Positions 7,264 through 45,378 of a DNA stretch of 64,000 nt are shown piece by piece. The DNA is from an uncultured Phycisphaerales bacterium (GTDB lineage Bacteria > Planctomycetota > Phycisphaerae > Tepidisphaerales > Tepidisphaeraceae): NCBI GenBank assembly GCA_963758525.1, contig CAVWVQ010000003.1, positions 160,001-224,000 on the forward strand, given 5' to 3'. The first letter of the stretch is position 1; every line of letters starts with the position of its first letter. A program made the position numbers and the translations under genes. Under the pieces are notes generated by a model, which was not told where the DNA came from, did not search any database, and saw only the letters and a program-made list of their open reading frames with translations.

Positions 7264-7397
7264 CGGATCCTATCCGCGCTCAACGGTGATTCCGGGGAAG
7301 CGAGTTCAATTATCCATGATGCGCAGCGCAGTCTTGGAAACAAGTCAGAGGGAATTTGCCTGAGGCGGGGCGTGCCCGATCTTCCGGGAGCGTGTAA

Positions 7398-8189
7398 CTA
7401 CGGATTGCTGCAACTCTTTCCCCCTCCCCTGGTACTCCGGGGGAGGGCCGGGGTGGGGGCTTGCTCGCGATCGCGCGGACTCGTTATCAAAAGCTCGTCA
7501 AAGCGCGCGATGCGCGGCACCGGCAACTCAGAGGAGATGGGAGCATTGCCTGGACGAACCGCCAGAGCGACGGCAAACCCGGATTGCCTTGCGGCGGTGA
7601 GTTCTTCGGCGACGTCAGAAAGAAAAAGAATGCGCGACGGAGCCAGTTGAAGCTCGACGGCGATCCTGGCGTAGCTGTCGGCAGATCGCTTCGGACCGAT
7701 CGTCGTGTCGAAGAAATGCGACAACAGAGGCGTTAAGTCCCCGGCGTCGGTATGGCGGAAGAAAACCCGTTGCGCGGCGATGCTGCCCGAGGAATAGATT
7801 GCCAGCGTCTTGCCTGATGCGTGCCATTGCCGCAGCGCGGGCGCCACGTCGGGAAACAGTTCGGACCGCAGACGACCAAGGCGATATCCCTCCTCCCAGA
7901 TGAGCCCCTGAAGCTGTTTCAGCCCTGTTCGCTTGGCGTCCGCCTCCATCAGACGAATGACCTCCGCCATTATCTGTTGCGGCGAATCTTCGATCGATCG
8001 CGCCGTGGATTGAGCGTCGGCAATGATCTGACGACGCGCCGCGATCACCGCCTCCTCATTCCAATGCGCCGCAAGAAAACCCGGCAACTGCTCGCGCGCA
8101 TATGGGAAGAGGACTTGGTAGACAAACGCAATCGGCGCAACGGTGCCCTCAATATCGAGCAGGACAGCGTCAACTGGGAATTGCTGCAT
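7398..8189 (-). CDS. mtnC: Enolase-phosphatase E1 (acireductone synthase), HAD family
   Basis: LLDIEGT, VLFPYARE, LKQLQGLIWEEGY, IYSSGS, LFLSD; C-terminus runs into a REP. Confidence 0.93.
   Translation of the reverse strand: MQQFPVDAVLLDIEGTVAPIAFVYQVLFPYAREQLPGFLAAHWNEEAVIAARRQIIADAQSTARSIEDSPQQIMAEVIRLMEADAKRTGLKQLQGLIWEEGYRLGRLRSELFPDVAPALRQWHASGKTLAIYSSGSIAAQRVFFRHTDAGDLTPLLSHFFDTTIGPKRSADSYARIAVELQLAPSRILFLSDVAEELTAARQSGFAVALAVRPGNAPISSELPVPRIARFDELLITSPRDREQAPTPALPRSTRGGGKSCSNP
7420..7459. repeat. REP (CCCTC-CCC-GGTAC-GGGAGGG family), single arm
   Basis: ccccctcccctggtactccgggggagggccggggtggggg. Confidence 0.8.
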
Positions 8190-8269
8190 CGATTCCGCCT
8201 TCGCGCCGACTTCACCGTATGGAGTGATCTAGATTCCCCATCTTGCGTCTTTAGCGCGGCATTGTGTTG

Positions 8270-8385
8270 CCCCTCTCCCGGTACTCCGGGGGAGGGTTGG
8301 GGTGAGGGTGATTTAGAGCATTGACGCCGTTCGACGGTCAGAATCACCCTCACCCCTGCCCTCTCCCGGAGTACCGGGAGAGGGG
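8270..8385. repeat. REP doublet (CCCTCTCCC...GGGAGAGGG family)
   Basis: Two inverted arms around a spacer of about 30 nt; close copies at 41883-42006 and 54651-54766. Confidence 0.85.
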
Positions 8386-26655: not shown

Positions 26656-28348
26656 ATGAGCACGACCGCTGAAATCAAACCTCTGGGGAAGCAGCTCCTC
26701 GAACGTGGAATCATCCAGTCGAGCCAGTTGGAAGCCGCGCTGCTGGAACAACGCAACAGCGGCTTTGCGCGTCTGCTCGGCGAAATCCTGCTGGAGCAGC
26801 ACGCCTGTTCTGATGAACAAGTCGCACTGGCCGTTGCCGAGTCGCACGGCGTTCCTTTTGCCCACGTCAGCCCGCGGCTGGCCGATCCGCTGGCGGTGGC
26901 ACTGCTGCCCAAGGATTTTCTCGAACATAACGTGATCCTCCCGCTGTTTCTGGTGGAAGGGATGCTGACGGTCGCGATCGCCGAGCCGGCAAACATGTAT
27001 CTTGCCGAGGAAATCGAACGGCGCACCGGATACCGCGTTCAGCTCGTGGCGTCTCCCGCGCGATATTCGCGCCACGCTCGACGCCTACCTCGCGGGCGAA
27101 AAAATGTTCGTGGTCGACGAAGTGCTCGAAGCCGGCGCCGGCGATTTTTCACTGCCGTCGCCCGCGCGCATGCCCCCCGCGGATGATCCGGCGCTGGACG
27201 CGCCCGTCGTGAAGCTGACCAATGCTGTTCTCTTCAACGCGGTCCGCGAAGGGGCGAGCGACGTGCACATCGAGCCGGGTGAAGCAGAGTTGCGCGTGCG
27301 CTATCGCGTGGACGGACGCCTCTTCGAGCGCATGCGTCCGCCCTTTCGGATGCGCGACGCGTTGACCGCCCGCCTCAAGCTGCTGGCCGGACTCGATGTC
27401 GCCCAGCGGCGCCTGCCGCAGGACGGCTCGATTCGCATGACCGCCAACGGCCAATCCGTCGCGCTGCGCATCAGCACCGTGCCAGGCCGGTACGGCGAAA
27501 CCGTCGTCGTTCATCTCTCCGAGGAAGAGCGCGGCACGCTGCGCCTCGAGAAGCTCGGCTTTGCATACGAAACGCTCAAGCAATGGAAGAAACTGATCTC
27601 CCGCCCCAGCGGACTGATCCTCGTCTGCGGCCCCTCCGGCAGCGGCAAGCGCGACACGCTCTGCGCCGCCCTTACCGAGCGCAGCAGCGCCGAGCTGAAT
27701 ATCTGCAGCGTCGAAGAGCCGATCGAGCGCACGCTGCCGGGCGTCAATCAGTTCCCTGTCGACGACCGCAGCGGCTTCACCTTCGCGTCAGCCGTGCGTT
27801 CGCTGCTCCGCCAGGAGCCGGATATTCTGATGATTTCCTGGCTGCGCGACTCCGACACCGCCAAGCTCGCCGCCCAGGCGGCCCTCACCGGCCGGCTCGT
27901 TTTCGCCGCGCTTCATGCGAACGACGCCCCCGCCGCGATCGCGCGGATGACCTATCTGGGAGTCGAGCCCTATGCCATCGGGGCCACGATCGCCGGCGTG
28001 CTCGCCCAGCGCCAAGTCAGAAAGCTCTGTTCTCATTGCAAGGAAATCTGCGAACCGACCGCGGCGCAAAGGCGGCAGATTGAGCCATTCGTCGGCTCCG
28101 TCGAGAAGCTCTTTCGCGCCAAAGGCTGCGACAAGTGCCACAACCTCGGCTACGCCGGCCGGCTCGGCATTCACGAGCTGCTGATCTGTGACGACGCTTT
28201 GTCCGAGCGCATCAGCCAGGGCGCGCCGCTCACCGAGCTGCGCGAATTGGCCGCAAAGACGAACATGAAGCCCCTGCGTGTCGACGGCCTGGAAAAGGTC
28301 AAATCCGGGCTAACGACGCTGGACGAGGTGTATCGGGTAACGGGGTAA
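26656..28348 (+). CDS. GspE/PilB-family protein with MshEN-like N-terminus and degenerate ATPase motifs (frameshift near 27050)
   Basis: PLGKQLLERGII...LEAALLEQ; ASDVHIEP, RYRVDG, RRLPQDG, GPSGSGKRDT, CSHC/CDKC, GYAGRLGIHE. Confidence 0.88.
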
Positions 28349-28545: not shown

Positions 28546-28593
28546 CTGGTACCTTGTCAACTCCGCACGGTTTGCTATCTTCAACAGGACGTT

Positions 28594-28666
28594 GGCAGCG
28601 TAGCTCAGTTGGTAGAGCGCGGGATTCATAAGCCCAAGGTCACAGGTTCGACTCCTGTCGCTGCTA
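28594..28666 (+). tRNA. tRNA with CAT anticodon (elongator Met most likely; Ile2 not excluded)
   Basis: Acceptor GGCAGCG/CGCTGCT, D arm GCTC-AGTTGGTA-GAGC, loop TTCATAA, T arm ACAGG-TTCGACT-CCTGT; CCA not encoded; two mismatches in the anticodon stem. Confidence 0.92.
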
Positions 28667-28722
28667 TTCCGGCAAAGGCCCGACTCCGCGAGATTTCACG
28701 GTGTGGGAACCCAGACGGCATT

Positions 28723-29890: not shown

Positions 29891-30255
29891 TCTCGATCTC
29901 CGCCTCGAGTTATTACGCCAGAACGAATGGCCGTTAGCAGCGCGTGGTTAAAGTCGCGCGGCCTCCGCTTGGGAGACATTAACCATGGGCTGCGAGGTCC
30001 GAATATTTTGATCGCGTCAGAACCAGCCTGTGACGTTTCCATCGGCTGTCGCCAACTGCTGCTGAACCTGCTGAATAAATGCGTTGTCAGGAGTCACTCA
30101 CGCGTTCCGCGTGAAATCACCTGTTTGTCGCCCGAATTCAAGCACGCCCGCTGCCGAGTCTGCCCGATATATGAGCGGGCGCTTCCCTGGTTACGCTGCC
30201 ATGAAATCGTTGGCGCGTGGGAAGTCGCCAGTTTCGGGGCCACCAGCGGGATCCA

Positions 30256-31491
30256 ATGTCGGACTCATTCTCGTTTTTGAGTTGTGCCCCTGAAGCTTCC
30301 CGCGCTGAGTGGAGCTTTCTCACCCGATGCATCGCGATGCAGTTGGGAGGCGCGACCACCGCGGCAGCGGTCCCGCCCGACGCGAAGGGTCTGAACTGGA
30401 ATACGATCCTCCGACTGGCCGAGGCGCATCGTGTCGTGCCGCTGCTGTCGGCGGCGGTGCTGGCGAATCAGGCGAAGGGCGTCTCGCCGAAGGCCGCCGC
30501 TGATCTGAAGGGTCGCTTTCGCTACTACTCACAACGCGGAATGTCGTTCGTCATGGAGCTTCGCAATGTGCTGGGTTCGCTCCGCCAGGCAGGAATCCCG
30601 TGCATTCCCCTCAAGGGGCCGGTGCTGACGGTCGGCAGTTATCGGAAGCTGGGGCTTCGTGATTTTGATGACTTGGATCTGCTGGTGGCGCCCGCGGACG
30701 TCACGCGCGCGGTCGCGGCGCTGGCGAACATTGGATATGCGGGCTGGGACATTCCAGCGCAATGGGTCGCGACGCACCTCCGCACCGAATCCGAACACAA
30801 CCTGGTGTGCGACCAGCGGAAGGTCACCGTCGATCTGCATTGGGCCATCGGCCGCAGATACTTCACGATGCCGATGGATTTTGAATCGCTCTGGAACCGC
30901 TCGGCGCACACGAAGCTGATCGGATCGGCGGTGCCGGACCTCTGTGCCGAGGATACGGTTCTCTTCCTCTGCTACCACGGCGGCAAACATCTCTTCTCGC
31001 GGCTGACGTGGGTATGCGATGTCGCGGCCACCATCACGGCTCATCCGAATCTGGACTGGGATGCGCTGCTGGCGATGGCCGCCGGGATGAACGCGCGACG
31101 ATTGCTGCTTCTGGGGCTGCGCCTGGCCCGGGAGATGCTGGGATCTGAACTCCCCGTCCGAATCCGAGCGATGATTGAAGCGGAATCGGCCCTGGAGCCG
31201 CTGGTGGCGATGGTGTTGCGAGGCATCTTCGACGAAACAAATTCCAAGCCCGCGTTGCAGCAACAAATCGAGGCTTCGCTCTTTCATCTGCGAGCCCGCG
31301 AGCGGATGTCCGACCGGCTGCGATATCTGTTTTGGGCCGCCGCCCCAAACGCCCGCGACTGGCGCGACTCGCGTCTCCCGCAGTCGCTCAGCTTTCTGCT
31401 GGTGCTGACCCGACCACTTCGCCTGCTCAGGAAGAATACGTCCCCTGATCACGCCTCCTCCGTTCCCTCCACGATGAGTCTGCCGGGCTAG
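30256..31491 (+). CDS. Nucleotidyltransferase family protein (NTP_transf_5 type)
   Basis: HRVVPLL, IPLKGPVL...LRDFDDLDLLV, VDLHW, LCYHGGKH...LTWVCDV. Confidence 0.88.
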   Translation: MSDSFSFLSCAPEASRAEWSFLTRCIAMQLGGATTAAAVPPDAKGLNWNTILRLAEAHRVVPLLSAAVLANQAKGVSPKAAADLKGRFRYYSQRGMSFVMELRNVLGSLRQAGIPCIPLKGPVLTVGSYRKLGLRDFDDLDLLVAPADVTRAVAALANIGYAGWDIPAQWVATHLRTESEHNLVCDQRKVTVDLHWAIGRRYFTMPMDFESLWNRSAHTKLIGSAVPDLCAEDTVLFLCYHGGKHLFSRLTWVCDVAATITAHPNLDWDALLAMAAGMNARRLLLLGLRLAREMLGSELPVRIRAMIEAESALEPLVAMVLRGIFDETNSKPALQQQIEASLFHLRARERMSDRLRYLFWAAAPNARDWRDSRLPQSLSFLLVLTRPLRLLRKNTSPDHASSVPSTMSLPG

Positions 31492-31502
31492 CTGTATGCG
31501 GG

Positions 31503-32816
31503 TTATGTTGGAATTGATCGCAATCGCTTCTCACCCGCCCTGCGCAATCGAGCGGTCGCAGGGTCGTTGCTGTCCGGCTTTTGCATCCCGGTGGGCTTGC
31601 CAGATGGCACCTCTCGAACCGGGAAATACCGCTTTAATTGCAAGAACCACTTCTCGTAGCAATGGAAGCTGATGAACGCCGCGGCGACGCTGATCAGCGC
31701 TGCTATGCAGGAATAGAGGATGGTTGTCGGCGTAGGACCCAGGTGAGGCAGGCGTGTGCCGATGGATTCATAAATGACTCTATTGAGCAACTGATGGAAC
31801 ACATAGATCCCGTAACTGTATCGGCCGAGAGTGACGAACGGCGACCTCGCAAGCAGGGGCATCACGAAGGATCGTGCATTCATCAGCGCGCCTTCGGCAA
31901 CGAGCCAGCACGAGAACAGCGCCACGAGGGTGCATTCCATCACGGAAGCAACTTTATTCTGAAACAGCACGCCGTGCATGACTCGCTGGCAGACCAGAAA
32001 CATCGCCGCACAGACACCTACAGGACGCAGGATCCTGAGAATCTGACTCGCGGTATATGTTCTGCAGGCGAGGGCCAGCAAAGCTCCAATCGCCAGTTCA
32101 TCGGTTCTGCACGGCGTGAGCAAGCTCGCGGTGTCATGGTGGCTGTGCGGAAGCAACAGATAACGGCTCGTCAGGGCAGTGAGAACCAGCACAAGGGAGA
32201 TACCGACCAAGCCTCTTTTGGATGAAAGATAGATAACGAGCGGCCAGAGGAGGTAAAAGTGTTCCTCCACTGCCAATGACCAGAAGTGCGTGACCATGAA
32301 CGGATAGGGATTTAGAAAACCCCACCCGAACCGGTACACGGCGAGATTGGTTCCGTAGAGCCACAACCACGCCTGGTGCGGCCGGGCCGCTGCAAGCCCC
32401 GCGCGAGCGACCGGCGTGAATGGGAGCACGAGGAATACAACCGAAAGCACGCCATAGTAGATGGGACAGATGCGGAGGGTGCGCCGGACGTAGAAATTTC
32501 GGAAAAAGTGCGGGGATCCCTTTGAATCGAGAAGGATACCGGTGATGAGGAAGCCTGAGAGCACGAAGAACAGATCGACTCCCATCCAGCCATTGCCCGT
32601 GAGTTTGATGTAGATGCGGCCCACTGACGTGAGGGGAAGCGCACTGAGATACCAGTAGCTGAAGTGCATCGTCATGACCGCCAGGACCGCGATCCCCCGA
32701 AGCCCGTCCAATGCGGGCATATAGCGGCCAAATGCCGGAGGGTCATCCTGCGGCGGAATTCGAGATCGAGCCCCGGTGATTGGGGAGACTGCAGATGGAA
32801 TTCCAACCATAGACAA
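31503..32816 (-). CDS. Acyltransferase_3 (OafA-like) membrane O-acyltransferase
   Basis: PALDGLRGIAV, GVDLFFVLSGFLIT, FYVRRTLRI, HFWSLAVEEHFY, GRYSYGIYVFH. Confidence 0.93.
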   Translation of the reverse strand: MSMVGIPSAVSPITGARSRIPPQDDPPAFGRYMPALDGLRGIAVLAVMTMHFSYWYLSALPLTSVGRIYIKLTGNGWMGVDLFFVLSGFLITGILLDSKGSPHFFRNFYVRRTLRICPIYYGVLSVVFLVLPFTPVARAGLAAARPHQAWLWLYGTNLAVYRFGWGFLNPYPFMVTHFWSLAVEEHFYLLWPLVIYLSSKRGLVGISLVLVLTALTSRYLLLPHSHHDTASLLTPCRTDELAIGALLALACRTYTASQILRILRPVGVCAAMFLVCQRVMHGVLFQNKVASVMECTLVALFSCWLVAEGALMNARSFVMPLLARSPFVTLGRYSYGIYVFHQLLNRVIYESIGTRLPHLGPTPTTILYSCIAALISVAAAFISFHCYEKWFLQLKRYFPVREVPSGKPTGMQKPDSNDPATARLRRAGEKRLRSIPT

Positions 32817-33967
32817 TTACTCCCAACGCCCGGCCGCCCGATTGCTGTTCTTTCGCGCAGGAGTATCGGCCGCCGCGGAGCTGGCGATTGAAGCGCGATT
32901 TCGGCCGATCCATAATTGGCGAAACGGATAGATCCACTGCCGCAGGTTTGTTGCCAGCACTCCGCGAACCGAATGAGCCGATTCCGCTGGAAACGTCTCG
33001 TCATCGATTCCGGTTGCCGGATAGACGTCATACTCCCTGCACTGGGTGCCAAACAGACAGTCCCAGACGGTCAGAATCGCGCCATAGTTTTGGTCGAAAT
33101 GCTCCGGGTGCAGGGAGTGGTGAATGCGGTGTGACTGCGGCGTAACAACAAAGTAACAGAGCGGTCCGAAATTGCTCCTGATGTTTGCATGGCAAAGCCG
33201 GTTGTGCCAGGTCAGGATCAATATCCACCAGATGACCGCGGGCTCCTGGAGATTGAGCATCAGCATGGGAAGCACGAGCACGGTGTAGCGGAGGAATTGC
33301 TCCACAATGTGATTTCGGTAAGACGAAAACTGATTCAATTCTCGCTGCGCGTGATGGACGGCATGAAACGGCCAGAGAAAGGAGAGGCGATGGTGAAACC
33401 AGTGCTGCAACCACCGCGCAAAATCCATCGCCACGGCGCCGATCACCAGCCGCAGCGCCACGGGAAGCGAATGAGCCGTCCGCAGAGTGAGAAAGGCCAG
33501 ATGCCGGGAGTAGAAGTTGTAGAGCATCGCGCCGTACCACATGGCGATCACCAGCCAGACCGCGGCTTCGATCACCACCCACAGCGCATCGTGAACCAGG
33601 CCGGTGCTCAGCGTCCGTTGAGAAGGAATTGCAGGAAAGCGGCGTTCCAGCATGAAGATGCCAAGCATGCCGAAGGGGTAGAGCACCATCGATAGCAGTG
33701 ACCAGCCGGAGATCGCTTTCTTGAGGTGCGGCAGCAGGCCGTGCAGAAGCCACCTTGCGCATCGGCGCTGACAAAAGCGAATGGGTAGAGAAGCCTTATG
33801 ATCAGGCAGGCGATCGCCAGCAAGAGGAAGCAGCCTGCGAAAACGATGCGAACGCGTGATTCGGTTGCGGATTCGGAATCCGGATTTGCGCGGACGTAGC
33901 TCGGCCGCCGGGAGCGGGGAAATTGGCGAGACAGAGATGTCGGGCGATTATCCGTCTCCGCGAGCAT
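32817..33967 (-). CDS. Sterol desaturase/fatty-acid hydroxylase family (probable frameshift near 33750)
   Basis: His boxes HWFHH, HAVHH, HANI, HRIHH, NYG; a TM N-terminus lies in the adjacent frame. Confidence 0.8.
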
Positions 33968-34274
33968 GCTCACCGGCCTGTCAGCATGCACTTGGCACGC
34001 GAAGCTAATTCACAGAACGCTGCCCGCATCCCGAGGCATGCCAAGCGACACCGTCATCGATCATTCGTATCGTCCAGCATCGATCCTATGTTGAGCATGA
34101 ATGAGCGGGGACCACCGGTATTATGGGGAGCTAATTCGCCGGTGCTGGTCCAACCTTACGGCTTTTCCGCGGGATAGGGTCTTTTTCTTAATAATCTGTA
34201 CATGGTGCAGTGTTTTGCCGATTGAATCGATGTAACCCGTACGCTCTTTCGGCCACGTTTTGTGCAGGAAATGA

Positions 34275-34721
34275 ATGATGAACGACACGACCAGCCGATT
34301 CAGGATTAACGAAAAGCTCGTGACCTCGAAGATGATCGACGGGGAGGCGATTATCATCAACCTGGCCAATGGGATGTACTACAGCCTGGACAAAACCGGC
34401 GGCGTGGTATGGGTGCTGATTGGCGCGGGTCAGAGCCTGGGCGAAATCGCGAACGTGGTGTCTTCACGCTTTTCCGCACCACCGGAGCAGGTTCGCGAGG
34501 ATCTGGCCCTGCTGGTGAACGATCTGGTGAAGCAAAATCTGGTGCTGCCCGCCGAGGGCGACGCGCCGATCGTGCAGGTCAAGCTCGATCCGCCCACGGG
34601 CGATGCTTACGTGCAACCCGTGCTCAATAGTTACGACGACATGGGGGATGTGCTCGCGCTGGATCCGCCGCTGCCGCAGGTGGAAATCGAAAACGAATCC
34701 TGGGAGACCAGCGTCAAATGA
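34275..34721 (+). CDS. PqqD-family RiPP recognition element (RRE) with C-terminal leader-like extension
   Basis: IDGEAIIINLANGMYYSLDKTGGVVW...EQVREDL..LVNDLVKQNLV; tail YVQPVLNSYDDMGDVLALDPP. Confidence 0.88.
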   Translation: MMNDTTSRFRINEKLVTSKMIDGEAIIINLANGMYYSLDKTGGVVWVLIGAGQSLGEIANVVSSRFSAPPEQVREDLALLVNDLVKQNLVLPAEGDAPIVQVKLDPPTGDAYVQPVLNSYDDMGDVLALDPPLPQVEIENESWETSVK

Positions 34722-34736
34722 GGGGCGCGAGCAGAC

Positions 34737-36496
34737 ATGGAGCAAGCCGATCCGCTCATTTCGTGTCTGTGCGTCACGCGTGCGCGCGTGGCCTTGCTCC
34801 GTCGCGCCGTTCAATGTTTTTTTGAGCAAACCCATCGCCATCGCGAGCTGCTGATTCTCTTCGATTCCGATGATGCCGCCACGCGCCAGTACGTTGGCTC
34901 GCTCGACGACGATCGCATCCGCGGCATCGAGGTGCCGGACTCTCCGCGACAATCGCTGGGATCGCTGCGAAATCTTGCCGTCGGCGAGGCGCGCGGGCAA
35001 TACGTCTGCCAGTGGGACGACGACGACTGGTATCACCCTGATCGACTGACGGTGCAATTATCGGCGTTGCGCGGCAGCGGCCGCTGTGCATGCGTCCTTT
35101 CCCGCTGGACCTGCGTCGACACTGAGGCGCATCGCGCCTACATCTCCCCCCACCGCGCCTGGGAGGGAAGCATTCTGGCCGAGCGCGATCGAATGGCGGC
35201 CTACCCGGATCTGGCCCGCGGCGAGGACACGGTGGCAATCGAGACGCTGTCCCGTCAGCAACAACTGCACATGCTCGACCGGCCGGAACTTTACGTTTAC
35301 ACATTCCACGGCCGCAACACCTGGGATCGCAGCCATTGGGCTTATCTGCTTGGAAAATCGACGGTCGTTCCGTGGGATGAGTCGCAGGACATCCTGCGCC
35401 GCACGGGCTCCGATGCGATGGGTCCCAACGCGCTTCCGATGCGGGAGCACCTTGCACCCACGCGTTATTGGTTCGACCAGGCTTGCGAGCGCGGCCGCGA
35501 GCCGGCGCTGACCACATACTTCCGCTTCGCTGACGCGCCGGTCCGGATGCGTGTCGCGGGTAACGCGCTCAATGCTCACCTGAAGCGGAGCTACGAGCAG
35601 TTGCTGGCAGACGATGTCGACCCCGACGGCCCTTTCGCTTTGACGATAGACGCGTGGGACCGGGCCACGACCGGCTTGGGATGTCCCGGCGTCCCGATGC
35701 CGCCGGACCAGACGCAACTCCTCGATGAAGGATTGCTCAACTCATACGACGACGGACGCATCATCCGCTACGAACGAGGGCATTACGTCAACGCAATCGA
35801 CCGGATGGCGCCAAGATTTTCACCTGGCGGGCCGACGGAAACGATCAGGCGCTCTATGAACGGGCCAAGCCATTCCCCAACATGCTGGAGATCTGGTATC
35901 GCGATCAGGGCGTCCAGCAGTTGCATGCGGGCCTGGTGGCGCGCGACGGCAAGGGGGTGCTTTTTATCGGACAGAGCGGATCGGGAAAATCGACCTGCAC
36001 GCTCGCTTGCGCGCTGGACGGCTTCGACTACCTTGGCGACGACCACAACGGGCTGCAGATGACTCAGGACGGGCGTTGCATCGGACACAGCTACTACAAC
36101 GCCGCGCGAATCGGGCCCGGGCACCTGCGGCATTTCCCGGAACTGCGTCCGCACGAAGTGCCTCCGCACAACCAGTACGATCAGAAATCGCTGGTCTGGA
36201 TGACGCAGGTGACCGGCCGCGTCGCAAAAAAGTGCGACATCGTCGCGGTCGTCATGCCGCGGATCGTCGTCGGAGGCACGACGCGATTTCGCCGGGCATC
36301 CAAGGTGCAGACGCTGATTGCGCTCGCTCCCAGCACGCTTAAAGTGCCGATGGGCGCGGGGCTGGGCGGCTTCATGAACCTCACCGACTTCATCCCGAAG
36401 ATCCCCTGCTTTCTGCTCGAATGCGGCCCCGACGTGCGTCAGATTCCCGATTGCGTGCGGCGGATGATTGATGCGGCCGCGGGGAGCGGAGGGTAA
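34737..36496 (+). CDS. GT2 glycosyltransferase fused to an HPr-kinase-like P-loop domain (frameshift near 35808)
   Basis: PLISCLCVT...CQWDDDDWYHPDRL; after the shift YERAKPF...LHAGLV...GQSGSGKST...YLGDD. Confidence 0.8.
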
Positions 36497-37629
36497 TGCG
36501 CATCCTCTATTGGACAGAGTCATTCTGGCCGAGGATCGGCGGAAGTGAAGTGGCGGCGGCGGCGCTGATCGGCGAAATGCGGTGCCGGGGCCATCAATTC
36601 GAGGTGGTGACACGGCAGTGGTCGCCGGATCAACCGGCAACCGATCGATGGAACGGTATTGCCGTGCATCGCGTGCCATTCGATGACGGCACGTTTGACC
36701 GGCTCAACCTGGAAGAGATCCTCCCGCTGCGTCAGCGCGTGGCTGCGATCAAGCGACGATTCAAACCTGATCTGGTTCACGTCGGCCTCACAGGACCGAG
36801 CCTGTTCCTGCATAATTTCACCGCGGGGCAGTTTCCCGCGCCCACGCTCATCACCCTGCATGTCGTGCCTGTGGAAACCGAATACGGCCGGAACAAGCCG
36901 GTACGCGAGGCGCTTCGCGCCGCAGCCTGGCTGGCGCCGGTTTCAAACGCCGTGGCAGCGCGGATACAGCATCGGTTACCGGCCCTGGCGGAACGCTGCT
37001 CGGTGATCCATAACGGATTGCCCGAGCCGACGGCGGCGCTCCTGCCCGTCCCCTTTTCACCGCCAAGACTGCTCTGTGTTGGTCGCGTCACCGAACAGAA
37101 GGGCTTCGACACCGCCGTCGCGGCGATGCCTTTCGTACGCGAGATGTTTCCAGACGCGGAGTTGTTGATTGCAGGGGATGGCGATGCGACTGAATCGCTC
37201 CGGGAATTAGCGTGCACGTTGAATGTCTCCGATTGCGTGAAACAACTGGGGTGGACGCCGTCAGACCAGGTGCCGGGGCTGATCGACGCAGCGACGCTGG
37301 TGTTGATGCCTTCGCGATGGGAGCCGTTCGGATTGGTGGCGCTGCAGGCAGGTCAGCGAGGCCGCGCGTGCGTGGCGGCGGATGTCGATGGTTTGCCCGA
37401 GATCGTGCAGCACGAACGGACGGGGCTGCTGCTTCCCCCGGATCAACCGCGACAATGGGCCGACGCCATCTGCTTACTGCTCACCGACCGGCAACGCATC
37501 ATGATGATGGGCCGCGAGGCGCGGCGGTTTGTTTCGCGGCAATTCAGCCTTGCGAAGCACGTGGACGCGTACGAATCGCTCTATCAGCGCCTGGCCGCCC
37601 GCGCCTGCAGGGAAGAGGCGATGGCATGA
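36496..37629 (+). CDS. GT4 glycosyltransferase
   Basis: FWPRIGGSE, VIHNG, VGRVTEQKGF, PSRWEPFGLVALQA, GLPEIV. Confidence 0.93.
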   Translation: MRILYWTESFWPRIGGSEVAAAALIGEMRCRGHQFEVVTRQWSPDQPATDRWNGIAVHRVPFDDGTFDRLNLEEILPLRQRVAAIKRRFKPDLVHVGLTGPSLFLHNFTAGQFPAPTLITLHVVPVETEYGRNKPVREALRAAAWLAPVSNAVAARIQHRLPALAERCSVIHNGLPEPTAALLPVPFSPPRLLCVGRVTEQKGFDTAVAAMPFVREMFPDAELLIAGDGDATESLRELACTLNVSDCVKQLGWTPSDQVPGLIDAATLVLMPSRWEPFGLVALQAGQRGRACVAADVDGLPEIVQHERTGLLLPPDQPRQWADAICLLLTDRQRIMMMGREARRFVSRQFSLAKHVDAYESLYQRLAARACREEAMA

Positions 37630-38336
37630 GCAGGCCAACCGTCAGTTGCATTCTCGCCGTTTACAACGGCCGCCAATACTTGGCCGAGGCGCTGGACTCG
37701 ATCCGGCGTCAGTCGCGGCCGGTGGATGAGATCATTGTCGTGGACGACGGATCGACCGATGACACGGTCGAGATCGCCGAGAGATTCGGTGCGCCTCTCC
37801 GCTGCATCCGCCAGCAGAACGCCGGCCAGTCCGCGGCCCGCAATCATGGTGTCCGCGTCTCGCGCGGCGACATGCTGTCATTTCTCGACTGCGACGACCT
37901 CATTCATCCCAAAAAGATCGAGCGCCAACTGCGGCGCTTTGATGAGGCTCCGCAACTGGCGCTGATCGACGCCTACGCGCAGAACTTCTGGAGCCCAGAA
38001 GTTCCCCAGGAGCAGCGGCAATTGACCGGCTGGCAAGCCATGACCCATTCCGACCAACCGTGGCCGGAGTTCATCGCAACCTGGCTCTTCCGGCGCGAAG
38101 CATGGCAGTGCGCGGGACAGTTCGACGAGAACCGCCGATTTGCCGAGGACAGCGACTGGCATGACCGCGTGCGCTTCAGCGGCATGCCGATGGAGACGAT
38201 GCGGGCGGTGCTCGCCCGGCGCCGGCTGCATCAGACGAATCTCACTCGCAGCAACTACGTCGACCACATCGACGGCCTGCAACGTTTTTACAAGGAGAAA
38301 ATCGACCGCCTGCGCGCTCAGGAACGCGCCGGTTGA
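37626..38336 (+). CDS. GT2 glycosyltransferase
   Basis: VSCILAVYNG, VVDDGSTD, AARNHG, FLDCDD. Confidence 0.92.
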   Translation: MSRPTVSCILAVYNGRQYLAEALDSIRRQSRPVDEIIVVDDGSTDDTVEIAERFGAPLRCIRQQNAGQSAARNHGVRVSRGDMLSFLDCDDLIHPKKIERQLRRFDEAPQLALIDAYAQNFWSPEVPQEQRQLTGWQAMTHSDQPWPEFIATWLFRREAWQCAGQFDENRRFAEDSDWHDRVRFSGMPMETMRAVLARRRLHQTNLTRSNYVDHIDGLQRFYKEKIDRLRAQERAG

Positions 38337-38344
38337 TTTACGTC

Positions 38345-39034
38345 ATGACGTCACCCGGCATCAGCTTGATCATCCCGGCATACAACGCGAGCCGCTATCT
38401 GCGCGAAGCGATCGACTCCGCGCTGAGCCAGACGATCAAGCCGAGGCAGTTGATCGTTGTGGACGACGGGTCGACCGACGACACGCTGCAGATCGCCCGA
38501 AGTTACGGCGATATCCTCACGGCCATCACACAGCCCAATGGCGAAGGCTCGGCAGCGCGCAATCGCGGCCTGACGGAAGCGGACCAGCCATTGATCGCGT
38601 TCCTGGACGCGGATGATCGATATGCACCCAATAAACTCGAGCGGCAACTGCAGTCCCTCTCTGACCACCCGGGCGCGATGCTCTGCATCTGCCGAGCCTG
38701 CGACTTCTGGTCGCCAGACCTTCCCGCTGCCGTTCGCAAGGCCTCAAACTTCGAGCCGCAGTTCAGGCCGGGCCAGCCGGGCACCTGGCTGGCGCGACGA
38801 GAAGTCTTCGAGTGCGCCGGGAGGTTCAACACCTCGCCAGCATTTAATTTCAGCGAAGGATCGGAGCTGTATTCACGCATCGAGAACGCCAGACTCGCAG
38901 TGGTGCGAATTGACGATGTGCTGGTCGAACGACGGCTGCATTCCTCGAACAAGACCGCGAATTCCAAAGCGCATCTTGATGGAATCATGTCGTTGATGAA
39001 GCGGCGGCTGGAATTGCGGAGGGGATCGGCATGA
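38345..39034 (+). CDS. GT2 glycosyltransferase
   Basis: ISLIIPAYN, VVDDGSTD, AARNRG, FLDADD. Confidence 0.92.
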   Translation: MTSPGISLIIPAYNASRYLREAIDSALSQTIKPRQLIVVDDGSTDDTLQIARSYGDILTAITQPNGEGSAARNRGLTEADQPLIAFLDADDRYAPNKLERQLQSLSDHPGAMLCICRACDFWSPDLPAAVRKASNFEPQFRPGQPGTWLARREVFECAGRFNTSPAFNFSEGSELYSRIENARLAVVRIDDVLVERRLHSSNKTANSKAHLDGIMSLMKRRLELRRGSA

Positions 39035-39186
39035 GCCAGTACGAAGTGCGGGATCCAGCGGCTCACGGTGGCGAACGGCCAATCTTGCTCCCTCCCGCGG
39101 AGAGGGGACCGGAGGGAAATCGCCCGCCGGTAAATTGTGCCCCTGGGACAGCGAATGAACTACCTGCGCGGAGTAGGCGGGTTTGC

Positions 39187-39879
39187 ATGATGACCACACC
39201 AGGCATCAGCCTGATTATCCCCGTTTTCAATGCGAGTCTTTATCTGCGCGAAGCCATCGACTCGGTGTTGAGCCAGACCCGCAAGGCGCAACAGATCATC
39301 GTCGTGGACGACGGATCGACCGACGACAGCCGCGAGATTGCCCTGGGGTACGGCAGCGCGATCACGCTCATCTCGCAGGCGAACGGCGGCACTGCCGCGG
39401 CGCGCAATCGCGGCCTGGAAGAGGCAAACCAGCCGTTGATCGGGTTCCTCGACAACGACGACCGATTCACGCCCCAAAAGCTCGAGCGACAACTGCACGC
39501 GCTTCTGGAAAATGACGGCGCGATGCTATGCGTCTGCCGGGTGCGTGCCTTCTGGTCGCCCGAGGTGCCCGGGAGCGCCCGAAGAGCCGTTGATCTAACC
39601 CCGCAATTTCGTCCGGGGCAGCCCGGCGCGTGGCTGGCGCGGCGCGAACTGTTCGAGCGCGTTGGCGGCTTCAGCGATGAGCCGCAGTGTTATTACATCG
39701 AAGGCTCGGAATTGTTCGTGCGTATCGAGCACGCGGGATGCGCGGTGGCGCGAATCGATGACGCGCTGCTCGAGAGACGGCTCAGCCTGTCGAACAAAAC
39801 AGCCAACTCCAAAGCGCACCTCGACGGGATTATGACCCTTATGCAGCGGCGGCTGCATTTACGGCGGTGTTCCACATGA
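39187..39879 (+). CDS. GT2 glycosyltransferase (paralog of 38345-39034)
   Basis: ISLIIPVFN, FLDNDD; shares PQFRPGQPG and NKTANSKAHLDGIM with the upstream gene. Confidence 0.92.
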   Translation: MMTTPGISLIIPVFNASLYLREAIDSVLSQTRKAQQIIVVDDGSTDDSREIALGYGSAITLISQANGGTAAARNRGLEEANQPLIGFLDNDDRFTPQKLERQLHALLENDGAMLCVCRVRAFWSPEVPGSARRAVDLTPQFRPGQPGAWLARRELFERVGGFSDEPQCYYIEGSELFVRIEHAGCAVARIDDALLERRLSLSNKTANSKAHLDGIMTLMQRRLHLRRCST

Positions 39880-40592
39880 GCCAGTACGATCTCCCACTCG
39901 TGAGTTGCATCATCGCCGTGTACAACGGCCAAGCGTATTTGCGCGAAGCGATCGAATCACTGCTCGCCCAGGAATATCCGCTGTTGGAGATCGTGGTGGT
40001 CGATGACGGCTCGACCGACGGCACGGCCGGCGTAATCAGCGCGTATCGCGGTCGCGTCCACGCGATCAGCCAGACCAATTGCGGCGTATCCGTCGCCCGC
40101 AATCGCGGGGTGGAGATGTCATCGGGCCGACTGCTTTGCTTTTTGGACGCCGACGATCTGCTGGATCCGCGGAAGATTGCGGCGCAGGTGGCCGCGTTCG
40201 GCACCGATGAACGCCTCGATTTTTGCGACTGCCATACTTCGTACTTCTGGAGTCCGGAGATTTCGGCCGAGGCGCTCGAGCGGGATCCTCGCCATGCCCA
40301 GCCATTCTGGCACACGCCCCTGCCGCGTCACATCAGCACCTGGTTGTTTCGTTGCGAGCTATGGGATCGCGTCGGCACGTTTGCTGCCAGACTCCGCTAC
40401 GCCGAGGACGTGGACTGGTTCAGCCGGGCTCGCGATCTTCCCATGCGCAGCCTGACACTCCCCGATGTGCTGACACATCGGCGACTCCATACGGGCAACG
40501 TGACCGCGCAATGCCGCGACCGGCAGGTCGACGACCTCGCGAGCACACTCCGGGCGCACATGGTCCGCGCGCGAACAAGGAACGCGGGCTGA
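39876..40592 (+). CDS. GT2 glycosyltransferase
   Basis: LVSCIIAVYNG, VVDDGSTD, FLDADD, AEDVDW, RRLHTGN. Confidence 0.92.
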   Translation: MSQYDLPLVSCIIAVYNGQAYLREAIESLLAQEYPLLEIVVVDDGSTDGTAGVISAYRGRVHAISQTNCGVSVARNRGVEMSSGRLLCFLDADDLLDPRKIAAQVAAFGTDERLDFCDCHTSYFWSPEISAEALERDPRHAQPFWHTPLPRHISTWLFRCELWDRVGTFAARLRYAEDVDWFSRARDLPMRSLTLPDVLTHRRLHTGNVTAQCRDRQVDDLASTLRAHMVRARTRNAG

Positions 40593-42104
40593 TGCAACAC
40601 CAGTTGCCCATCTCCGCCTGCGATCCGCCGCTGGCCGATACCCTTCGGCTGATGATGCCATGCGCAACCACCACGCTGCTGCTGCAAGCGGCACTGCTTC
40701 AAAGCGGCGCGGCCGGCGAAGCGTGGTTGAAATGGAGGCAAACCATCGCAGATCCCAAGGCATTTCTCGCATCCGATCGCGTCGGCATCAAACGTCACTT
40801 GCCTTTGTTGTACCGCAACCTGACCGCGCACCAGGTGGACGTCGGCCGCGACCTTGAACCGTACTTCCGCGCGGCCCGCGCTCGTGAGGAGCTTCGCAGC
40901 GCGCGGTATCGCCGATTCCTCGGCGAAGCACTCGGCGCGCTGCAACGCAGCGGCGTTGAGTTTGTCGTGGGCAAGGGCGTGACCGTCGGCGAAACGATCC
41001 ACGCAGATCCGGTTGTGCGGCACAGCCACGACATCGATCTGCTGGTGCGACCTGGGGACCTGGCCACCGCGGCCGAGGCGTTGCAGAAAGCGCGATTCCC
41101 CTCGTCTGCGACACACAGCCCGCGCGGCGAGCCGCGATTCGTCCACGAATCGGGCTTGCCCGTGGAACTGCACCATCGGTTGTACCGCACGCCCTTCTAT
41201 GACGGCGACCTGACGGGCGTCTGGGACCGGGCACGCGCCGGCGAAGCCCTCGGCATGCCAGTGCGGCTGATCAGCGACGTCGACCTGCTCGTGCAAGCGC
41301 CGGTGCATGCGTCGGTCGTGCCGCAACGCTGCGGACTCAGTTGGATTGTCGATGTCGCAAGTCTTCTGCAACGACGCGATGCCGAAGGAACAGCGATTGA
41401 CTGGGCGTCGGTCATCTGGATCGCGGGCGAAGCGGGCGCGACGCTGCCGCTGTACGTGACGTATCATTATCTTGCGACCACATTCAAGGCCCCGATTCCC
41501 CGGCAGGTCATCGAAGAACTGGGCCGCTCGGCGCAGGGCAGGACCGCTGCAGCATCTGGCGGCCTTGGACGGCCTGCGCTGCGAAGCCCGATATCGGCGG
41601 ATCAAAGTGCTGCTCGACGCCAGCGGATGGCGCTCGCGCGCGGCGATCGCCAGAGCGATGCTGCTGCCGCCGCCGGCATATCTCAGGGCAACGCATCCGG
41701 GGATACGCCGGTTACCGCTGGCGCGAATTTATATCACACGACCGCTGCAGTTTGCCGGCAGGCAATTCAACCGATTCAAGTTCCGATTGCGGCAACGATG
41801 GCTGGGTCTGACGCAAACGCCGTTGGCACCTGTTGCGATAGCAGCAGCCGTCGCGTGCAACCGCGAATCATGGAAGCAGCTTCTTGCCTCCTCCCCTGGT
41901 ACTCCGGGGGAGGATCGAGGTGGGGGCCCTGTAAGTGCAACCGTGCCGCTATTACGCCCGGCCCCCACCCCAACCCTCCCCCGGAGTACCAGGGGAGGGG
42001 GCAAGAGCGCGTCAACTCAGGAGACCGGTGACATTCGAGCCGGTTCTGCGCGTAGTCCGGCGGCTTCGGCTCCACCCTCAATTGCACGGGAGTCCCTCGT
42101 ATGA
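40592..42104 (+). CDS. Nucleotidyltransferase family protein (NTP_transf_5 type; frameshift near 41535; REP in 3' end)
   Basis: LPLLYRNL, VGKG...RHSHDIDLLV, VELHHRL, SWIVDV. Confidence 0.8.
41883..42006. repeat. REP doublet (CCTCCCC-GGTAC-GGGGAGG family)
   Basis: Inverted arms resembling 8270-8385. Confidence 0.8.
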
Positions 42105-44103
42105 TCGGACGCATTCGCTCCAGCCGCGCCCGCTACCGCGAGTACTGCCGCCAAATGCGGCAGACGCGATACGACCCGGCGGCGCGGCGAATACTGCCGA
42201 AGGACGTTGCCGCGCACGATGCGCAGACCGGCCAAAGTCGTCACCGGCGAAGCACGCGCGAATTGATCGGCGCCTTCTGGCGTCAACTGCGCGCGCATCG
42301 CCTCGTGCTGTGGAATGTCCTTCTTACCTCGGGCATCGCGACCCTGGTGGGTTTGCTGCCGCCTTATGGGATGAAGGTCATCTTCGACAATGTCTTCACG
42401 GGCAAGCCACTGCCGAAGGCGATCGCATCATTGCGCTGGATGCCCTCCACGCCGTCGGGACTGCTCTGGACCGTGGTGATGGCGATGTTCGCGCTGTCGG
42501 TCCTCTCGGTGGTGACCAGGACGATCAGCAATTCCATCGCCTATCGGCTGCAACAGCACCTGATTCTGCGGGCGCAGCGGCGCCTCCTGCATCACACGCT
42601 GCGAATGCCGTTGCATCGGCTGCGTCAGATCACGTCCGGCGGTATGTCTTTCATCGTGCGTCACGATGCCAATGCGGTGGGCGATCTGGTGGTCTTCCTC
42701 GTGTACGAACCGTGGAAAGCGATCATTCAATTGCTGGGCTGCTTCGCGGTCCTCGCCTGGGTGGACTGGCGGCTGCTTGCCGGGTCGCTGGCGCTGCTGC
42801 CGCTCCTGTACATGGCACAGCGGACGCGCGTCGGGCGGATTCGCGACATGGCGGAGGATGCGTTGTCCCACGACCAGCAGCTTGACGGTCAAACCGCCGA
42901 ACTCTTCGGCGGCATCCGCGTCATCCGCGGCTTCGGCCGTGAATCCACCGTCGCGGCGCGGATGCTCCGCCGGCACCACTTCGTCTCGCGCCTGCAGTTG
43001 CTGTCCTGGTGGCTGTTCCGGAGCGTGGATGTCGGCTGGATGATTCTGATTCCGCTGGCGTCGGCCGTCCTCCTGGCGGTGGGCGGAGCACGCGTGCTTC
43101 ACGATGCGGCGGAAGTCGCCGCCGGGCGCCGGCGCCGGCGCATGCCTTTTCCGTCGGCAGCCTGGTCATGTTCATGGCGTATCTGGCATGGCTGCTCAAT
43201 CCGCTGGCGGCGCTGGCGCGCACCAGCACACACCTGCAGAACGCCCTGGCGGGTATGAACCGTGCATTAGACGTGTTGGAAGAGCCCGTCGAGGCCGCGA
43301 CGCAAGGCGCGATTTGCAATCTGCGGCCGTCGGGGGATGGAGCCGTCTCGCTGAGCGATGTGTGGTTCACCTATCCCGGCAGCGACGAACCCGTGCTGCG
43401 CGGCATCGATCTCGACGTGCCCGCCGGCCAGACTGTTGCGCTGGTCGGCCCCAGCGGCGCCGGAAAGTCCACGCTCACCAATCTCATCGCTCGCTTCTAC
43501 GACCCCGACCAGGGAACCGTCCGACTGGACGGCGCCGATGTGCGTCTGATCGACGTGAGGTTCTGCCGCAAAATGATGGCGCTCGTCGATCAGGACATCT
43601 TCCTCTTCGACGGCACGATCGGCGAGAATATCGCGTGCGGCAACCGCCGCGCGTCGGCCCGCGAGATCGTCGAGGCGGCCAAGGGCGCTCACGCCCACGA
43701 GTTCATCACGGAATTGCCCGAGGGTTACAACACTTCCGTGGGCGAGCGCGGCCTGCGCTTCTCCGGCGGACAACGCCAGCGCATCGCGATCGCGCGAGCA
43801 ATGCTCGCCGATCCAAAGATTCTCATTCTCGACGAGGCCACCAGCCATCTCGATCCGGAAAACGAGCGTCTCATCCAACAATCCCTTGCGTCGCTCATGG
43901 CCGGCCGCACATGCTTCGTCATCGCCCATCGTCTCAGCACGATCCGTCACGCCGACCAGATCGTGGTCCTCGAGGAGGGCCGAATCACCGAGCGCGGCCG
44001 GCACGAAGAATTGATGCTCAGCAGCAGCCGATACCGGCGGATGATTCAGCTGCAACTGGGCGTCGAGGAGTCGGCGTCGCAGCCGGAAGAAGCCGTGGTT
44101 TAG
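42101..44103 (+). CDS. ABC exporter, fused TMD-NBD (frameshift near 43130)
   Basis: TM helices followed by GPSGAGKST, FSGGQRQRIAIARA, ILDEATS, IAHRLST; no C39 peptidase domain seen. Confidence 0.9.
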
Positions 44104-44138: not shown

Positions 44139-44534
44139 TCAACGCGAGACCTCAGGGTCCTCCGCCAATCCCTGCTCAACTAACATCCTCTTGAATTCCT
44201 TCGGCGTGCGAATGGAATCCATCGCACCCTTCCGAATTCGTTCGAGCAGATCGCCTGATACAGGTTCAAACATTTTCCGCAAACCCGCTTTCACCATCGC
44301 ATCGAGTTCGGCGTTCGACGCCTTCGCATTGCCACGGGAATAGGTGATACACGTGCGATTCGTAACCGTCGAGTGGGCTCCCGGCAGAAGCACGCAGGTG
44401 TGGTCCTCGCGTGCGTCCCAACTTGTCATGCCCACGAAAAGCACCTTATCGGGGTGCTGGTCTGGGTTGGAGATGATCACTTTCGCGTGTCGGTCCGCGG
44501 CTTTGACAAGCCGGAACACATCCCCTTGTTTCAC
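44139..44534 (-). CDS. Putative toxin, possibly PemK/MazF-like fold
   Basis: MKQGDVF...RHAKVIIS...VGMTS pattern; overlaps the Panacea gene by 4 nt. Confidence 0.55.
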   Translation of the reverse strand: MKQGDVFRLVKAADRHAKVIISNPDQHPDKVLFVGMTSWDAREDHTCVLLPGAHSTVTNRTCITYSRGNAKASNAELDAMVKAGLRKMFEPVSGDLLERIRKGAMDSIRTPKEFKRMLVEQGLAEDPEVSR

Positions 44535-45097
44535 GCGTCCCTCACGGCGCCCAGAGCATCTTCAAAAGCCGCCTCCGCCTGCTCGTCGGCAATAAGACGT
44601 TCTTCGTAATCCGTCATTCCGAGAGCCTCCAGCACATCATGGAGTGGTATGTCCTTCTTGCTTCCCTCCGGTGGCTGATTCTTGCTCCATTCGGGGAACT
44701 TGTGAGTCTCGTCGGCAATATCGTAATCGGTCATGCCCCGTCGCATTGCACTCACGGCTCGCAATTTCCTGATCTCGTACTCGGAGAGGGTGTCATCACC
44801 CGGTTGGCCGACCAACATATGACTGCGTTCGCCATCCTGAGCGATGTATTTGTCCCAGATGGCATTTCCGGGCTGCGATTCACGTCTGATCAGTTTATAG
44901 GTTTTTGACAAAACGGGGCCGTGATCCATCGCTACGACATCATCGCCGGTGATCGGCTGAAGAGTTTCCGCAATGCTCTCGCGATCAGCGATGTAGAGCA
45001 GCTTCAGCAACCGCAATCTGGTCATTTTCCCACCCTCCTGTTGCAAGAGGGTGGATGCCGCCTGTACGGCCTTGAGCGTGTTGAATGAAATGACCAT
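44531..45097 (-). CDS. Panacea (DUF4065/SocA-like) antitoxin
   Basis: LLKLLYIADR...PITGD...MDHGPV, ETH..PEW. Confidence 0.85.
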   Translation of the reverse strand: MVISFNTLKAVQAASTLLQQEGGKMTRLRLLKLLYIADRESIAETLQPITGDDVVAMDHGPVLSKTYKLIRRESQPGNAIWDKYIAQDGERSHMLVGQPGDDTLSEYEIRKLRAVSAMRRGMTDYDIADETHKFPEWSKNQPPEGSKKDIPLHDVLEALGMTDYEERLIADEQAEAAFEDALGAVRDA

Positions 45098-45378
45098 CGC
45101 CGAACCACCTGCTGCGTTATGCGTTAATTCGATATTGTATGTCGTGCGTCCCATTCGACAAACTCGGCGGCTTGGCCGAGCAGGGCTTCTGCGACATAGA
45201 CATTCATATCGAAGAATATCTTCATCGATCGCGAGGCCTTGCTACCGTCTGATCAATGCTTCGTGGTGGATTCCCGCATGGCGCGCGATCTCCCAAGCCG
45301 GACTCGATCTCCGTGATGATGTTGCCAACCGTCGCCTGGCTCATAGGTTACAAATGATAGACAAGACTTCGGCGAATC

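Follow-up and report, generated by a model that had tools for sequence, protein, structure and literature searches.

A widespread fusion of a lasso-type RRE to its own leader-like tail, and its possible role as a built-in substrate of neighboring kinase and glycosyltransferase enzymes

RREs serve as markers for peptide natural-product clusters, and clusters that combine a kinase, a nucleotidyltransferase and an RRE without a visible precursor are common and unexplained. Such a locus is present in the window analyzed here, a stretch of 64,000 nucleotides from an uncultured Phycisphaerales bacterium, and it raises the question of which molecule its enzymes modify. The gene of interest (P0001; 34275-34721, forward strand), supported by the ORF call, homologues and Pfam, encodes a protein of 148 amino acids. 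It is preceded by AGGA at 34266-34269, and a promoter and terminator scan of 33600-34800 returned matches at chance level only. Residues 8-92 (34296-34550) form a lasso-type RRE domain, as judged from Pfam, an AlphaFold2 model and structural matches. Assignment to the PqqD/RRE family follows from a match to PF05402 (PqqD) at residues 24-90, which scores 47.3 bits against a cut-off of 23.4, and from the three-strand, three-helix fold of the model. Matches to NCBIfam models are all below their cut-offs, the best being lasso PqqD-family chaperones. The top PDB matches of the model are the leader-bound lasso RREs TbiB1 (5V1V, 5V1U) and TfuB1 (6JX3), with an E value of 1e-5 and a TM score of 0.89 (by target length) for TbiB1.

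The RRE is followed by a linker, residues 93-111 (34551-34607), that is variable in the alignment of homologues and sets the motif 18-29 residues from position 90 across the family. Next comes the leader-like segment YVQPVLNSY, residues 112-120 (34608-34634), beginning with the Tyr112 codon TAC at 34608 and predicted from the AlphaFold2 model and from residue coupling to lie in the RRE groove. Beyond it are a conserved, putatively free segment, DDMGDVLALDPPLP, residues 121-134 (34635-34676), recognized by its conservation in the tails and including the candidate acceptor or kinase-docking residue Asp130 (codon 34662), and a variable end of low model confidence with a partly conserved Trp, residues 135-148 (34677-34718). 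The C-terminal end of the protein reads YVQPVLNSYDDMGDVLALDPPLPQVEIENESWETSVK. A first-pass annotation had described this layout of RRE, linker and YxxPxL tail, and the ORF, the Pfam match and the Tyr codon at 34608 agree with it. The motif YxxPxL occurs 20 times in 183,003 residues of neighboring non-core predicted genes, or about 0.006 expected occurrences per 55 residues, so its presence in the tail is not a matter of chance.

Residues 112-120 very probably dock in the leader groove of the RRE, either within the same chain or between two copies. Docking of the tail had been proposed in the first-pass annotation, and is predicted here from AlphaFold2 confidence together with coupling between Asp76 and Tyr112. 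In an AlphaFold2 run on an alignment of 67 rows, residues 111-120 reach a pLDDT of 96, with a strand at 118-120; the linker block 101-110 stands at 85, and the blocks after residue 120 at 60, 55 and 46. Such a value behind a variable linker indicates that the segment is likely packed on the domain. A mean-field coupling analysis of 440 sequences (effective number 239) places Asp76-Tyr112 first among 2,349 RRE-tail pairs and second among all 6,005 pairs. Asp76 accompanies 211 of 224 Tyr-type tails and none of 203 Phe-type tails, and within the sister subfamily described below it is found in five of eight Tyr-type and none of 60 Phe-type members. Against the coupling stands the small number of independent changes: a tree-aware test of the pair counts two independent pairs on supported branches and six on all branches (sign test, p = 1). 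Asp76 (codon 34500) aligns with Asp70 of LppB, whose hydrogen bond to the leader Tyr is seen in the crystal structure of LppB with LppA (Popov et al., 2026; PMC13381572). In linear polyphosphorylated peptides (LPP) the segment beyond the groove is free and is thought to engage enzymes (PMC13381572), and low model confidence suggests that the corresponding part of the tail may be free here also.

The tail is a consistent property of the family. A word-indexed search gave 165 candidates, and among 119 homologues the strict full motif is found in 111; the motif guessed in the first-pass annotation, YxxPxLxxYxDMxDxLxLDP, is conserved almost exactly as written. Of the eight misses, six cover at most 48% of the query, in P0063 the tail is present but deviates once (by eye), and P0116 is a 99-amino-acid RRE without a tail (40% identity). 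Mean agreement with the commonest column residue over 74 genome-derived rows is 0.76 for residues 112-134, 0.54 for the RRE, 0.29 for residues 135-148 and 0.22 for the linker. The tail is therefore better conserved than the RRE, with figures that lean high because the tail contributed to the search by which every sequence set was gathered. A scan of GTDB genomes provided 78 loci from the best 80 of 106 confirmed matches, spanning Planctomycetota, Gemmatimonadota, Acidobacteriota, Proteobacteria, Bacteroidota, Chloroflexota, Actinomycetota and others. The strict pattern is present in 78 of the 81 RRE-tail proteins of these loci and the window, and the other three deviate at one position (by eye). 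The weakest full-length match, P0117, led to a sister subfamily of 679 proteins, the best 120 of which were inspected, and to metagenome loci represented by the best 80 of 396. Its tail reads FxxPxLEKFTDMQDLILLDPVHEVDxxGWP, and common to both subfamilies is [YF]xxPxLxx[YFH]xDMxD[LV]xxLDP with a later Trp.

Searching 1.84 billion representatives with a tail-only profile recovers 2,498 proteins at E <=0.001 (50%-identity clusters, many of them fragments). A full RRE stands ahead of the tail in 85 of the 150 best matches. Another 64 have a partial RRE, linker-like sequence or an unrelated N-terminal part and are read as probable fragments or frameshifts, and a few proteins of 47-62 amino acids among them may be free peptides. 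No stand-alone tail peptide was found among the shorter matches, two of two starting inside the last helix of the RRE or the linker. A separate tail ORF in locus L147 was rejected as a free peptide, as it follows the in-frame stop of a second gene copy; this copy (L147, 7034-7507) has its stop in the linker and is followed by a second kinase. P0241 was dropped as a family member: this protein of 3353 amino acids, the top profile match through repetition only, consists of 37 near-identical tandem 83-residue repeats with FSPPVLHSY and without Leu-Asp-Pro. Locus L016 (2721-11194) contains three copies of the RRE-tail gene, identical at 444-445 of 447 bases and each followed by a GT2 gene, with a degenerate tail remnant near 7786; the triplicate may be a recent duplication or an assembly error.

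Neither the fusion nor the motif is described in the full-text literature searched, which covers few subscription papers and includes PMC13381572, the work on RRE-Finder (PMC7470986) and that on daptides (PMC10036551). The RRE-tail fusion is real and widespread, and apparently no earlier description of it exists.

In the window the RRE-tail gene heads a cassette on the forward strand. A GT2 glycosyltransferase fused to an HprK-like kinase (34737-36496) contains one frameshift near 35805-35819; it is 51-57% identical to a protein of 582 amino acids in locus L002, and the fusion is intact at that length in both L002 and L020. A GT4 glycosyltransferase, recognized by profile match (36496-37629), is followed by four successive GT2 genes (37626-40592, first start approximate; ORF ends 38336, 39034, 39879, and 40592), a PsmN/LppN-like nucleotidyltransferase of the NTP_transf_5 family (40223-42031, true start probably near 40589), and an MsbA-like ABC exporter (42101-44103) whose membrane and ATPase parts occupy overlapping ORFs in different frames, with a frameshift at about 43200. 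Close relatives (L001, L163) have frameshifts at other places, and those of the kinase and exporter genes fit assembly error. Overlapping ORFs at 26656-28348 also resemble one split gene, probably through assembly indels. Upstream of the cassette are a second NTP_transf_5 nucleotidyltransferase (30217-31491, forward strand) and, on the reverse strand, acyltransferase-3 and fatty-acid-hydroxylase-family genes (31503-33689) that are accessory and do not recur in related loci. The tail is present in three of 61 related genomes, the source genome counted, and this patchy presence suggests transfer. The cassette is flanked by a tRNA-Met gene (28593-28667) on the left and, on the right (44139-45154), by a gene for a SocA/Panacea-domain antitoxin together with a small unnamed partner; along with the patchy spread these flanking genes suggest an acquired island. 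The G+C content is 0.573 at 31500-34200 and 0.635 in the cassette.

The cassette recurs with the tail. Full loci, those flanked by 5 kb or more in each direction, number 50, and encode GT2 (49), NTP_transf_5 (47), the HprK-like kinase (46), GT4 (36), and the MsbA-like exporter (18); kinase, NTP_transf_5 and GT2 occur together in 44. The kinase ORF directly follows the RRE-tail gene in 75 of 112 loci with downstream room, and the same cassette is found in the sister subfamily. Accessory genes are of polysaccharide type, including Wzm/Wzt, epimerases, sulfotransferases and, in 13 of 158 loci, a flippase family. No other recurring acceptor protein was seen in the cassette. Variant architectures include a different GT2-kinase fusion of 625 amino acids (L017, 7350-9227) and a 1122-amino-acid ORF with NTP_transf_5 at its C-terminal end (L022, 6614-9982). 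The His, Lys and second Asp of the kinase His-Lys-Asp-Asp motif are kept in 54 of 54 aligned sequences, and the kinase model (pLDDT 92) has PEP carboxykinases as its top structural matches. The arrangement resembles that of TIGR04352 (HprK-related kinase A), in which an uncharacterized HprK-like kinase stands beside a PqqD-like protein, and which we take to belong to the "HPr-rel-A system" with TIGR04353 as its PqqD model. Unlike in that system, the kinases here score 23-47 bits, below the TIGR04352 cut-off of 200 (40.3 for the C-terminal half of the window kinase, 47.1 for the intact protein of L002), and P0001 has no match to such a PqqD model (E 0.01).

The first-pass annotation had noted no other convincing precursor ORF in the vicinity, and none was found near the gene. 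The source genome has one RRE above the Pfam cut-off, and a strict genome-wide scan found 28 short ORFs with a loose form of the motif; all lie away from the cassette, and by eye not one resembles a leader or a tandem array. Among the 158 loci a convincing separate precursor is found in L031 only, in a neighboring second cluster (5713-8287). There, two tandem peptides of 33-34 amino acids both contain FVAPVLKAQASLASLTL, with Thr at the position of Asp130 here and of Ser in LPP. The cluster also encodes an HprK-like kinase, a lasso B2 protease and a discrete RRE, together with the beginning of a nucleotidyltransferase-like gene, and the contig ends without a cyclase having appeared. This B2 protease and this intact discrete RRE are the only ones in the 158 loci, and PF13471 has no match in the source genome (90.9% complete). 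No peptidase recurs in the genes scanned around related loci. Scans for Peptidase_S24/S26 at strict cut-offs, which took in cluster representatives and a portion of the 514 non-core genes predicted, gave no match in 23, 80 and 116 neighboring proteins (E 1e-4, 1e-10, and 1e-9). With no recurrent peptidase, nothing was seen that would release a core. A macrolactam cyclase, searched for with a lasso-cluster seed, is absent from 24000-47000 of the window; the seed matches three ORFs in two of the 158 loci, and one of these, when scanned, has a full glutamine amidotransferase domain.

The tail itself does not look like a core of the kind first proposed. In the first-pass annotation its acidic, Ser/Thr/Tyr-containing part was taken for the modified core, a claim that the alignments do not support. 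Across 192 non-redundant members, no column of the tail conserves Ser or Thr; Ser and Thr after Leu117 are absent in 14, Tyr120 is replaced by Phe or His in 54, and a C-terminal Ser is present in 19 only. What follows Pro131 is a variable end of 3-34 residues with no common modifiable residue and, in 36 of the 192, no Ser or Thr. The fixed residues of the tail are Asp122, Met123, Leu129, Asp130 and Pro131, the Asp130-Pro131 pair being nearly invariant. Asp130 is Asp in 78 of 78, 120 of 120 and 149 of 149 tails chosen by patterns that omit this position. Counted from the motif Tyr as 1, it is residue 19 (register read by eye), and the polyphosphorylated Ser of the LPP consensus YxxPxVLxHQxIxFETxxS is also residue 19 from the Tyr (PMC13381572). 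At position 37, in the RRE, 180 of the 192 members have Ser or Thr (Ser37 here); this residue may be an acceptor but was set aside as a family-specific one because the discrete RRE of L031 also has Ser or Thr there. We know of no case of Asp phosphorylation by the HprK-like peptide kinase family. All characterized relatives phosphorylate Ser, and LppK rejected Thr and Tyr in its place (PMC13381572), which would make an Asp acceptor a novelty. Provided that the protein is modified, an acyl-phosphate link at Asp130 is about as probable as modification elsewhere.

Among known systems, the locus comes closest to the tailoring half of LPP and pseudomycoidin clusters. According to Popov et al. (2026; PMC13381572), the LPP clusters of Bacillota comprise lppA, lppK, lppB, lppS, lppD and lppN. 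They share with the present loci an RRE of the same fold with a Tyr-binding Asp, a YxxPx[LV] leader motif, an HprK-like kinase, NTP_transf_5, an MsbA-like exporter, polysaccharide-type surroundings, and the lack of a cyclase (PMC13381572). They differ in having a discrete RRE and a separate precursor with a variable core, whereas here RRE and leader are one chain; in an archaeal-type signal peptidase (Signal-peptidase-I-like), of which none was found in the scanned neighbors here; and in a Ser+3 acceptor, where the present tails have Asp (PMC13381572). Here, unlike in LPP clusters, the core cassette includes GT2 and GT4, and hosts are drawn from many phyla. The tailoring systems of paeninodin and pseudomycoidin likewise combine a lasso-type RRE, a leader motif, a His-Lys-Asp-Asp kinase and a PsmN-like nucleotidyltransferase tied to sugar addition on the phosphate (PMC6993621; PMC9266682). 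In contrast to both, the loci described here lack a B2 protease, a macrolactam cyclase, Thr(-2), a ring residue, and a conserved C-terminal Ser. The lasso rules (Thr at -2, a small residue at +1, Asp or Glu at 7-9) fit none of the 192 non-redundant members, extending to the family what the first-pass annotation had remarked of this one protein, that the Gly and penultimate Thr of lasso leaders are missing. As judged from sequence, the RRE-tail protein is a member of neither the lasso nor the LPP group.

What, then, do the enzymes modify? The kinases PadeK, ThcoK, PsmK and LppK act on peptides, and PsmN is required for hexose addition to a phosphopeptide (PMC9266682; PMC6993621). With no other peptide on offer, an RRE that presents its own tail is the simplest reading, and with neither a recognizable protease nor a separate peptide the RRE-tail protein is likely its own substrate. 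We propose that the RRE presents its leader-like tail, folded back into its own groove, so that the protein would be a built-in substrate of the neighboring enzymes. Phosphorylation by the HprK-like kinase, for which the invariant Asp130 is the most likely site, would come first, and nucleotidyltransferases and glycosyltransferases would then build a sugar chain on the phosphate, an order borrowed from pseudomycoidin and LPP. The protein would stay uncut as a primer or carrier, with no proteolytic release of a core. That the RRE-tail protein is a substrate at all seems likely; the full proposal, in which a self-loaded primer or carrier is first phosphorylated and then receives sugars while staying uncleaved, falls a little short of an even chance. 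Several observations count against it. A nearly invariant tail that lacks a variable core would be equally typical of a protein interface, no Ser or Thr is conserved in it, the register match with LPP concerns a single position, the PEP carboxykinases that best match the kinase model act on small molecules, the accessory genes are of polysaccharide type, and the kinase gene is frameshifted in this assembly.

Part of this evidence favors the main rival explanation, which is possible though on balance doubtful. The protein may be an unmodified, permanently loaded RRE-leader unit that docks on the kinase and transferases and activates or scaffolds them, while these act on a sugar, a lipid-linked glycan or another surface acceptor; Asp130 would then be a fixed mimic of phospho-Ser. 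The absence of a conserved hydroxyl acceptor, a variable core and a peptidase is as this predicts, and so are the PEPCK-like fold of the kinase and the polysaccharide-type accessory genes. It is opposed by the action of the characterized kinases and PsmN on peptides, by the lack of another acceptor protein that recurs in the cassette, and by the three near-identical gene copies of L016, which are more like a dosage-limited substrate if they are not an assembly error. Rather unlikely, in our estimation, is a specific form of the carrier idea, in which an RRE would have captured its own leader and become a dedicated carrier for glycan synthesis: the kinase would make an acyl phosphate on the invariant Asp of Asp-Pro, the PsmN-like and GT2/GT4 enzymes would build a glycan upon it, and the labile link would let the glycan go or pass to an acceptor.

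A true fused RiPP precursor, the reading raised in the first-pass annotation, with the tail modified and released as a small peptide that the ABC transporter exports, is improbable. Asp-Pro bonds are labile and self-cleaving Asp-Pro motifs exist, and release could occur by breakage at the invariant Asp-Pro bond or through a housekeeping protease. The predicted docking of a leader-like motif on the RRE, the near-invariance of Asp130-Pro131, and an MsbA-like exporter in the window and 18 of the 50 full loci are all compatible with such a product, and two subfamilies with different ends could mean two product types. Yet no peptidase recurs, the exporter is absent from 32 of the 50 full loci, and the 3-34 residues after Pro131 share no modifiable residue and in 36 of 192 members contain no Ser or Thr. 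Least probable is a tail that acts as an auto-inhibitory placeholder until a true precursor from another part of the genome takes its place. Short ORFs are easily missed, and in L031 leader-bearing peptides are encoded as separate genes within a few kb, but those belong to a second cluster that supplies its own kinase, B2 protease and discrete RRE. The 28 loose-motif ORFs of the source genome are neither near the cassette nor leader-like by eye, and a placeholder could do without the conservation seen past the residues that bind the groove.

The family has a cultured host. A sister-subfamily member, WP_232229449.1, is carried by plasmid pCRI9333.04 of Crinalium epipsammum PCC 9333 (L159, 5896-14180), where its neighbors are a nucleotidyltransferase, the intact HPr kinase WP_015180011.1, an FkbM methyltransferase and glycosyltransferases, with a group II intron maturase adjoining. 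Should the tail of the RRE itself prove to be the missing peptide, about 2,500 clusters (50% identity, many of them fragments) would gain a defined substrate, and the role of PsmN/LppN-type enzymes would become directly testable with two or three soluble proteins. The tailoring enzymes of lasso peptides and LPP would also be tied to the polysaccharide loci that surround them. Were the dedicated-carrier reading correct, thousands of loci across many phyla would use a third mode of priming bacterial glycans, distinct from lipid carriers and from stable protein glycosylation.
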